From: Escherichia phage EcM-vB1
Length of the DNA stretch: 64,000 nucleotides
Sequence record: PV574017.1
Direction: 5' to 3' (one strand)
The notes under the pieces were generated by a model that saw nothing but the letters and a program-made list of their open reading frames with translations, made no database searches and was not told where the DNA came from. Every line of letters starts with the position of its first letter. Position 1 is the stretch's first letter. The translations under genes and the position numbers were made by a program. Below are positions 6,385-7,161 of the stretch, one piece after another.

Positions 6385-7161
6385 ATGAAAGCATTTGCAT
6401 TGTCAGCTATTCTAGTTTTATCTGCCATTAGTGCCCCATCCTTTGCTCATTCTGACAAATGCTCACACTCTAAACAGTGTGAAGTCCAGCAGGGGCCGAA
6501 AGGTGATAAAGGAGAACAGGGTATTCAAGGCGAACAAGGTCCGAAAGGTGACAAGGGTGATCGCGGAGAGCAGGGCTTAAAAGGTGATACTGGATCGGCT
6601 GGCATCAATGGTACTAATGGCATTGATGGTAAAGATGGCATTGATGGTAAAGATGGCATTGATGGTAAAGATGGCATCAATGGTAAAGATGGCATTGATG
6701 GTAAAGATGGCGCTCAAGGTGAAAAAGGTGATTCTGGTGCAGATGGTAAGAAAGGCGAAACTGGCCTAACTGGTGCAGCAGGTTTGAATGGCGTTGACGG
6801 ATTAAATGGCAAAAATGGTAAAGATGCAGATATGTCTGCCGTTAATGCTAACGCCAAATCTATCAAAGCTCTGGAACAATCCACCAACAAACGTTTTGCT
6901 TCTTTGCAAAAACAAGTAGACCGTAACCGTGATCATGCCTCTGCTGGTATTTCTGGCGTGGCTGCAATGGCTAACATCCCGCAAGTAAGTCAAGGATCTG
7001 CTTTCTCTGTTGGTGCTGGGGTAGGTGCTTACGATGGTGAATCTGCTCTTGCTATTGGTGTTAGTGCTCGTTTCAATGAAAACGTAGTAACTAAAGCATC
7101 AGTGGCAATGACTTCAGAGAGTGACGCTGTTCTGGGCGCTGGTGTAAGTTACGAGTGGTAA
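6385..7161 (+). CDS. secreted collagen-like protein with YadA-type (trimeric autotransporter) C-terminal membrane anchor
   Basis: signal peptide MKAFALSAILVLSAISAPSFA; about 40 Gly-X-Y triplets (GIDGKDG repeats); C-terminal region GISGVAAMANIP...SALAIGVSARF...LGAGVSYEW resembles YadA anchor consensus ending in aromatic residue. Confidence 0.7.
   Translation: MKAFALSAILVLSAISAPSFAHSDKCSHSKQCEVQQGPKGDKGEQGIQGEQGPKGDKGDRGEQGLKGDTGSAGINGTNGIDGKDGIDGKDGIDGKDGINGKDGIDGKDGAQGEKGDSGADGKKGETGLTGAAGLNGVDGLNGKNGKDADMSAVNANAKSIKALEQSTNKRFASLQKQVDRNRDHASAGISGVAAMANIPQVSQGSAFSVGAGVGAYDGESALAIGVSARFNENVVTKASVAMTSESDAVLGAGVSYEW

Follow-up and report, generated by a model that had tools for sequence, protein, structure and literature searches.

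A putative collagen-rod trimeric autotransporter encoded by an optional cassette of the lytic Escherichia phage EcM-vB1

Trimeric autotransporters such as YadA, Hia and AtaA have in common a signal peptide, a stalk helix that runs into the barrel, an anchor to which each chain contributes four strands, and a terminal aromatic residue. E. coli trimeric autotransporters borne by phages are also known: the Eib proteins of lambdoid prophages (P-EibA, P-EibC, E. coli ECOR-9) bind immunoglobulin and confer serum resistance on the lysogen. Scl1/Scl2 of Streptococcus pyogenes, BclA of Bacillus anthracis and Lcl of Legionella carry Pro-poor, charge-stabilised Gly-X-Y rods beside a trimerising domain. 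Here we analyze a gene of Escherichia phage EcM-vB1 (PV574017.1), at positions 6385-7161 on the (+) strand of a 64,000-nucleotide stretch of DNA (the window), the product of which has features of each of these systems. On the strength of sequence comparison and a predicted structure, the product is probably a minimal, headless type Vc trimeric autotransporter, carried as an optional ‘moron’ cassette by a virulent phage. It shares with YadA, Hia and AtaA the four features listed above, whereas head, neck and repetitive coiled-coil stalk modules are lacking, the passenger consists of a collagen repeat and a 15-residue tip, and the whole protein has 258 amino acids (aa) against 455 to >3,000 aa in those relatives. 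The Eib proteins are carried by prophages, whereas in this case the carrier is a strictly lytic phage and the passenger a headless collagen rod. Compared to Scl, BclA and Lcl, in which attachment is by LPXTG or to the exosporium, the phage protein would be held by an outer-membrane β-barrel, and it has no globular V, C1q-like or C-terminal binding domain.

The phage is a phiEco32-like podophage (genus Kuravirus): positions 5500-8500 of the window are 100% identical to Escherichia phage EcP-vB and ~96% identical to phiEco32. In the EcP-vB record the same coding sequence is labelled "YadA-like protein", and the phiEco32 homologue, gp119, is an "agglutinating adhesin" in GenBank and a "tail protein" in RefSeq. 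According to Moreno Switt et al. (2013), phiEco32 and two Salmonella phages, both virulent, have homologues of yadA that do not stand near tail genes, and the function of these was left open (PMC3728262). In a 2023 survey, the YadA anchor came out as the most frequent of the "virulence-associated" auxiliary genes in N4-like phages, with speculation on pathogenicity (PMC10654107). The identity of the gene is thus already annotated in GenBank and discussed in print, and is not a discovery in itself. The points added here are a five-part family signature, a length polymorphism that stays in frame while the anchor is conserved, a cargo slot, the lack of an own promoter, and a likely mislabelling of homologues. 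Our literature search found no paper describing the design of collagen plus YadA anchor: the text of a paper on ‘collagen-like adhesins’ of Burkholderia does not mention YadA (PMC10224339), and in Ralstonia the collagen-like proteins RcpA/B are separate from the YadA-like adhesin RadA (bioRxiv 2022.11.02.514976).

The coding sequence comprises 258 codons and a stop, with the ATG at 6385 and the stop codon at 7159-7161. An AGGA Shine-Dalgarno sequence lies 9 nt 5' of the ATG, and is kept in phiEco32 and in the cassette of 172-1. The gene and its product are divided as follows.

6372-6375 (+): Shine-Dalgarno sequence AGGA (sequence; conserved in phiEco32 and the 172-1 cassette)
6385-7161 (+): coding sequence of the putative collagen-stalk trimeric autotransporter (open reading frame, Pfam, EcP-vB annotation)
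6385-6447 (+): Sec signal peptide, residues 1-21, with predicted cleavage between SFA and HS (hydropathy, sequence)
6448-6492 (+): mature N-terminal tip, residues 22-36 (HSDKCSHSKQCEVQQ), with Cys26 and Cys32 (C-x5-C) (sequence, family conservation)
6493-6825 (+): collagen-like region, residues 37-147, 37 Gly-X-Y triplets (Pfam Collagen, sequence)
6617-6711 (+): 18-bp tandem repeat encoding GIDGKD, 5.3 copies, the length-variable part (Tandem Repeats Finder)
6826-6978 (+): residues 148-198, the junction GKD-ADMSAVNAN and a predicted long helix, 151-196 (AlphaFold2; alignment to the YadA/Hia stalk helix)
6979-7158 (+): YadA-type membrane anchor, residues 199-258, four predicted β-strands, ending YEW (PF03895, phmmer, AlphaFold2, Foldseek)

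A two-codon open reading frame (ATG AAA TGA, 6380-6388 (+)) overlaps the start codon of the gene and is conserved in phiEco32.

The C-terminus was compared with known anchors by profile, by sequence and by structure. Residues 199-258 match the YadA_anchor profile (PF03895) over its whole length (positions 1-60 of 60), with an E-value of 2e-19 and 69.8 bits against a cut-off of 22.7; a Pfam search at E up to 1 returned nothing beyond Collagen and YadA_anchor, i.e., no head, neck or stalk modules. When the C-terminal 111 residues were searched with phmmer against the sequences of the Protein Data Bank (PDB), YadA (2lme) was matched at E 6e-9 and Hia was also matched, the anchor being only 23-33% identical to the solved examples of the YadA/Hia/AtaA type. 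An AlphaFold2 monomer model built on a 47-sequence alignment predicts a helix of 46 residues (151-196) with a predicted local distance difference test score (pLDDT) of 80-94, followed by strands at residues 207-216, 219-229, 234-243 and 248-256 with pLDDT of ~90, and the stalk helices of YadA and Hia can be aligned with this helix. Searched against the PDB with Foldseek, the model matched at E <0.001 only Hia (3emo, 2gr7, 2gr8), the AtaA transmembrane domain (9vnj) and YadA (2lme). These five top anchors had E-values of 2e-8 to 3e-4, target-normalised template-modelling scores of 0.68-0.87 and root-mean-square deviations of 1.6-2.8 Å, and the next hit was at E 0.096. The protein ends YEW, with an aromatic residue as in the insertion signal for the β-barrel assembly machinery (BAM).

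The region N-terminal to the anchor has the makings of an exported collagen-like passenger. The predicted signal peptide, MKAFALSAILVLSAISAPSFA followed by HS, has a basic N-region, a hydrophobic core and a small-x-small cleavage site, the call being made by hydropathy and inspection of the sequence; here and for the homologues below, signal peptides were assigned by heuristic and not by a trained predictor. The Gly-X-Y run extends over residues 37-147, 37 triplets without interruption, and matches Collagen (PF01391) at E 2.7e-20 and 72.3 bits against a cut-off of 27.2, while the NCBIfam models of Scl1/Scl2/Lcl (NF038330, NF038329, NF046116) match only partially, in the collagen repeat alone, at 66-76 bits against cut-offs of 325-500. 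Within the run, the repeat unit is the hexapeptide GIDGKD (18 bp), of which Tandem Repeats Finder reports 5.3 copies with 94% match at 6617-6711; the fourth copy is a GINGKD variant. The run contains only 2 Pro and 38 charged residues, among them 8 K/R-G-D/E pairs that suggest charge stabilisation of a putative triple helix, and its net charge is –6. If a triple helix is formed, the rod would be ~32 nm long and the stalk helix would add ~7 nm. A trimerisation context may be at hand directly C-terminal of the rod, in the predicted coiled coil and anchor joined to it by the conserved GKD-ADM junction, and membership of the family would suggest a trimeric state. Autotransport tolerates closely spaced cysteine pairs, and the pair in the tip probably forms a small disulfide-closed cap.

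These results bear on a preliminary description of the same DNA, made from the letters and a list of open reading frames, which had proposed a secreted collagen-like protein with a YadA-type autotransporter anchor. Its placing of the gene at 6385-7161 is right, given the ATG with AGGA upstream and the same coding sequence annotated in EcP-vB. The proposal of an anchored, secreted protein gains support from the profile match (69.8 bits, about three times the curated cut-off), the PDB comparison, the predicted fold and the conservation of signal peptide and terminal Trp, and the cleavable signal peptide that it had named is borne out by the Sec features of MKAFALSAILVLSAISAPSFA before HS. The first outcome that was to refute it, a C-terminus that fails to match the YadA_anchor profile significantly, did not occur. 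A collagen run is present as described, with the count of "about 40" triplets slightly high against the 37 found; the perfect (GIDGKDG)n repeat, in contrast, does not hold, as the unit is the hexapeptide GIDGKD and its fourth copy reads GINGKD.

We further analyzed how widely this architecture occurs. A tblastn search with the C-terminal 111 residues matched 102 phage records, which spread over many lineages that are unrelated and for the most part virulent: kuraviruses, N4-like Salmonella phages (66% identity), the jumbo phages GAP32, fHe-Yen9-04 and Munch, the T4-like phages SKML-39, phiR1-RT and PM2, and Erwinia, Pantoea, Proteus and Aeromonas phages; for the jumbo and T4-like members the match is confined to the C-terminal anchor region. 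The Eib proteins were also found, aligned over 96% of the 111-residue query with an identity in anchor and stalk of only 34%. In a word-indexed homologue search the C-terminal 111 aa alone gave 13 hits, and the full-length query was far more informative: each of the best 120 clusters listed carries both Pfam Collagen and YadA_anchor. Family statistics were taken on 119 of these clusters, those not returned by the first search. A signal-peptide-like start is present in 114, the other 5 being truncated gene calls, and the terminal Trp in all 119. Exactly two Cys, placed between signal peptide and collagen run at a spacing of 5, 6 or 8 residues, occur in 105 of the 119. The collagen run has 12-58 triplets (median 39), and the junction GKD-ADM(S/T)xVNANT is conserved across the family. 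The same design of signal peptide, Cys-Cys, collagen, coiled coil and anchor is seen in phiEco32 gp119 and in the yadA homologues of the N4-like Salmonella phages FSL SP-058, SP-076 and TR2.

In three other phage contexts that we examined, the homologues lie in non-structural (replication or metabolism) regions. In a 45-kb myophage the homologue comes after DNA polymerase A, and the tail genes are on the other strand; on a phage contig it has UvrD, TerC and TelA as neighbours, and in TR2 it lies between hypothetical genes and dUTPase, near TerB. The Ter and Tel genes were noted as a side observation: TerB (TR2, 5904-6353 of its locus) and, on the phage contig, TerC (7849-8832) and TelA (11896-12999) stand within 1-5 kb of the autotransporter gene in two unrelated phage contexts. 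One homologue is on a genuine bacterial chromosome, and homologues of Enterobacter and Cedecea have ~60% identity in the anchor.

The architecture and gene position also bear on a quite different explanation, in which the protein is a fibre of the virion, the collagen rod being the shaft of a tail fibre and the C-terminal domain a trimerisation module only. The best PHROG match of the protein is phrog_26246, ‘tail protein’, at 2e-88, and many collagen-containing tail fibre PHROGs match too; collagen-like repeats are common in phage fibres. In addition, cyanophage ‘YadA domain-containing structural proteins’ have been found in virions by mass spectrometry (PMC9146016), and one paper groups phiEco32 with these cyanophage proteins. 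Outside the anchor, however, the PHROG matches are to low-complexity collagen repeat, and the cyanophage proteins are of far greater size, with 2,235 aa in the one case for which a detailed description is available. A cleavable Sec signal peptide is found family-wide, whereas virions assemble in the cytoplasm, and the C-terminus is predicted, by sequence and by model, to be a bona fide membrane β-barrel anchor ending in Trp. The gene has an early position, at a distance from the tail genes, and homologues elsewhere are in non-structural modules. SU10, a Kuravirus with a solved virion structure (PMC11990801), does not have the gene. Because the gene is absent from SU10 and from ~85% of related records, it is not needed for the virion. 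A virion fibre is therefore, in our judgement, very improbable.

This matters for the annotation of homologues. The labels ‘tail protein’ and ‘tail fibers protein’ stand on phrog_26246 and in RefSeq NC_010324, PQ850626, OQ359892 and OR050522, and are spread by PHROG-based annotation; they sit badly with a signal peptide kept across the family, with an anchor for the membrane and with a gene position outside the structural modules, and they are probably wrong. When phages for therapy are screened for safety, the gene may be picked out as a ‘virulence factor’.

To see how the gene varies, eight Kuravirus alleles were compared. They fall into two N-terminal types and carry 0-7 copies of GIDGKD and 12-37 triplets, always in frame. 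The allele of the window differs from phiEco32 gp119 in signal peptide and tip (type B), and its rod is the longest among those compared (37 triplets against 12-34). Over the shared C-terminal 144 codons, by contrast with the rod, there are 15 variable bases, with 11 codons changed synonymously only and 4 conservative replacements (A/S, V/I, V/I, V/L), a pattern with P ~1e-4 under neutrality if three quarters of changes are expected to be replacements; the C-terminus is 99-100% identical among kuraviruses. The C-terminal 144 codons are thus under purifying selection. GC content at third codon positions (GC3) is 0.28, below that of neighbouring phage genes, and a blastn search in distant mode found no similar DNA in 5,426 complete E. 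coli genomes. Taken together, the in-frame alleles, the synonymous bias, the low GC3 and the lack of an E. coli DNA match argue for a functional gene long resident in phage genomes.

The same data speak to the proposal that the gene has no function in the lytic cycle, being a recently captured bacterial adhesin or a virulence factor that is merely carried. Such a passenger would fit with the patchy distribution (14 of 99 related records), with the lack of an own promoter and dispensability in other phages, with the bacterial homologues (one chromosome; Enterobacter and Cedecea at ~60% identity in the anchor), and with the listing as a putative virulence gene in PMC3728262 and PMC10654107. It is set against an anchor under purifying selection and repeat changes that are all in frame, against the absence of DNA matches in E. 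coli, and against the low GC3, which argues for long phage residence. The five-part design, moreover, recurs in several unrelated virulent lineages, and a benefit by lysogenic conversion is inapplicable to phages without lysogeny functions (PMC3728262, for the Salmonella phages). We regard a functionless passenger as improbable.

The preferred identification as an autotransporter of the infected cell raises the question of how the gene is carried and transcribed, for which the following features of the surrounding DNA are relevant.

3104-3132 (+): nearest strong sigma-70 early promoter, TTGACA-17-CATAAT, given as context (SU10 match, promoter scan)
6305-6327 (+): backbone terminator-like hairpin 1, GCCGCC-TTTG-GGCGGC and T5 (folding; present in SU10, phiEco32 and 172-1 whatever the cargo)
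6335-6358 (+): terminator-like hairpin 2, GCCTCC-TTAATT-GGAGGC and T6, abutting the cassette (folding)
6360-7230 (+): optional cassette of 5' leader, coding sequence, 3' hairpin and spacer (junction alignments; absent from SU10)
7169-7186 (+): 3' hairpin of the cassette, CCTCTCCC-GAAA-GGGAGG, extended to 9 pairs (folding)

The gene occupies a slot between the homologues of gp120 and gp117. In SU10 the flanking genes are kept with only ~240 bp between them and the slot is empty (2330-2430 of its locus), in the window and in phiEco32 it holds the autotransporter gene, and in 172-1 (1002-1319 of its compared locus) a helix-turn-helix open reading frame lies between the same cassette ends. The 172-1 cargo shares with the window the 5' leader YCTAYTGTATAGGAA and the 3' end, which runs from GGTGTAAGTTA through the hairpin to GAAACAAC; the 3' hairpin is retained there with changes in the stem. 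Since 172-1 has a different open reading frame between the same ends, the slot can be taken as a site of cargo exchange. Among 99 phage records that match the surrounding 3 kb, a count that includes GenBank/RefSeq duplicates, 14 carry the autotransporter gene and ~85% are without it.

The two hairpins upstream of the gene (6305-6322 and 6335-6352) together reach –32 kcal/mol with a z-score of –5.3. In gene-less SU10 two hairpins stand at the same position, the first with the same sequence and the second differing, and the upstream hairpins are therefore features of the phage backbone rather than of the cassette. In phiEco32, SU10 and 172-1 the second hairpin is GCCCCGGC-TACG-GCTGGGGC with T6 at the same place. 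Compared to these three, the window (6328-6358) is missing a ~60-bp spacer between the two hairpins. The 3' hairpin at 7169-7186 is weaker (z-score –1.9) and has an interrupted weak T-tract, GTGTTTCT; it may be either a weak terminator or an RNA-stabilising hairpin. The preliminary description had placed terminators on both sides of the gene and seen in it an insulated unit. Its terminators stand for the upstream side, where there are two strong ones, and are less certain downstream; the insulation is not supported, as the gene has no promoter of its own and its expression seems to rely on read-through from early promoters.

For transcription, the promoter at 3104-3132 is identical over 30 nt to one of the listed early promoters of SU10, scores 11 of 12 in the scan, and lies on the same strand 3.25 kb upstream of the gene; the homologous region of SU10 is classed as early. 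From these sequence features we infer an early-region gene expressed by read-through, presumably driven by the promoter at 3104. Near-consensus sigma-70 early promoters were seen at 522-549, 2471-2499 and 3104-3132 (+), and a terminator-like hairpin with a 12-bp stem at 4978-5005 (+), inside the early region and upstream of the gene; since the latter adds to the pair at 6305 and 6335, an early transcript would pass three hairpins. Two other readings of the leader were rejected. The leader, ATTATATA in the window, ACTGTATA in phiEco32 and ATTGTATA in 172-1, weakly resembles the promoter motif of the phage sigma factor gp36 (tAATGTATAtA), and one-mismatch matches to that motif number 56 in the window against 71.5 expected, i.e., there is no excess. 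As the motif is at chance level and a start 6-8 nt downstream would remove the Shine-Dalgarno sequence, the conserved TRTATAGGAA is taken to be a ribosome-binding region or the end of the cassette and not a promoter. Likewise, a repeated element that shuffles promoters or stem-loops was not supported, the leader motif not being enriched elsewhere in the window (12 against 9.6 expected).

The features above can be assembled into a route of biogenesis, which shares the good confidence that we place in the molecular identity. Host sigma-70 RNA polymerase would transcribe the gene together with the early genes, reading through the two hairpins. The 258-aa precursor would be exported by Sec and, to judge from its sequence features, cut by signal peptidase after Ala21. 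Three chains of four strands each would make a 12-stranded barrel, which, by analogy with the family, BAM would insert into the outer membrane of the infected cell by means of the terminal Trp. Collagens fold, and autotransporter passengers emerge, from the C-terminal end towards the N-terminal end. Three 46-residue helices would accordingly form a coiled coil through the pore and nucleate the 37-triplet triple helix from the C- to the N-terminus, with the Cys-x5-Cys tip capping the rod. The dying cell would in this way be covered, as if with hair, by charged rods, each made up of ~32 nm of collagen and ~7 nm of coiled coil and lacking a globular head. In the filaments of BclA on Bacillus anthracis spores, repeat-number polymorphism changes filament length; it may be speculated that slippage of the 18-bp repeat tunes the length of the phage rod.

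What the phage would gain from such a layer is a separate and more tentative matter. The preliminary description had named superinfection exclusion, receptor masking and cell aggregation as possible roles, and these are guesses. T5 Llp and lambda Lom, Bor and Cor are phage-encoded proteins of the host envelope that change what binds the cell; they are lipoproteins or 8-stranded barrels with known targets. They offer a functional analogy only, having no relationship of sequence or fold to the phage autotransporter. The rods may form a steric barrier that reduces the adsorption of other phages, and of the progeny of the same phage, to infected cells and debris; of the roles considered we rank this one first, as a guess that is less likely than not to be right. 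Kuraviruses use the O-antigen as receptor (PMC11990801), and for this reason a rod layer of O-antigen-like height has at least a geometric relevance. The phage Bas90 of the BASEL collection, which grows on E. coli K-12 with restored O-antigen, carries an allele of the gene, Bas90_0117.

A role in adhesion or aggregation, as in the label ‘agglutinating adhesin’, competes with the steric barrier. The molecule and its biogenesis would be the same, with the rods sticking infected cells to each other, to uninfected hosts or to surfaces such as mucus, so that progeny are released among densely packed hosts. Trimeric autotransporters are typically adhesins or autoagglutinins, and the Eib relatives on prophages match at 34% identity. 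In the rod itself 12 of the 37 X positions hold Ile, Leu or Val and Asp alternates with Lys, a regular pattern by which rods could associate laterally. A role that does not depend on the receptor would fit with the recurrence of the design in phages whose receptors are quite different. Against this, the protein offers little to bind with: Pfam at E up to 1 gives only Collagen and YadA_anchor, with no head or ligand-binding domain, and the tip has only 15 residues, while the net charge of the rod (–6) should oppose self-association. Gluing of cells is a possible role, less likely than not and ranked only slightly behind the barrier.

Returning to the reading as a surface-displayed autotransporter with a shielding role, several observations weigh against it, in addition to this competition from adhesion. 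In the AlphaFold2 model residues 1-143 have pLDDT <50, and no structure emerges for the collagen part, which is to be expected when one chain is modelled by itself. The gene sits behind two good hairpins with no recognisable promoter of its own, the sigma-70 scan between the upstream hairpins and the ATG having found none. It is dispensable, as most kuraviruses are without it; in a T4-like phage of Serratia, moreover, the loss of 6.5 kb with a YadA-anchor open reading frame is tolerated (PMC5449768). No model of PADLOC, a library of bacterial anti-phage defence systems, was matched, one short latent period may be too little time to cover the surface of a cell, and the literature search brought up no experimental work on phage-encoded members of the family.

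A broader proposal can be derived from the family as a whole, namely that collagen-rod autotransporters are a distinct and mostly phage-borne family with which unrelated virulent enterobacterial phages coat the infected cell, blocking further adsorption (superinfection exclusion, and protection of progeny from debris) or gluing hosts, with rod length tuned by repeat slippage to the height of host surface glycans. We offer it as a speculation that, taken in full, is unlikely to hold in every part. Strictly lytic phages as unrelated as the kuraviruses, the N4-like group and a 45-kb myophage retain a gene for a small, putative outer-membrane fibre among their early or replication genes, and a clear role for it would lengthen the short list of proteins by which lytic phages change the surface of an infected cell.

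A number of public phage assemblies are interrupted or masked where the collagen-coding repeat lies. In MN03 (MT129653), FS2B (MW929182) and PGN6866 (MT127620) the match to the gene abuts the end of the record, which suggests that these records end inside the gene, and the ShigP1 assembly has a run of N within it. The annotated ‘adhesin’ of MN03 has 125 aa, compared to 196-262 aa in intact alleles.

Two neighbouring reading frames were also inspected. A 43-aa open reading frame at 7166-7297 (+), gp118 of phiEco32, begins within the 3' hairpin of the cassette, has no family match, and is probably not a gene. The product of the next gene, at 7272-7661 (+), is a SleB-like cell wall hydrolase, matching Pfam Hydrolase_2 with 32.2 bits (cut-off 27) and an E-value of 1.7e-7. 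Since this gene is also present in SU10, it is not coupled to the autotransporter; its position is early, and any lysis cassette that was seen is a long way off.

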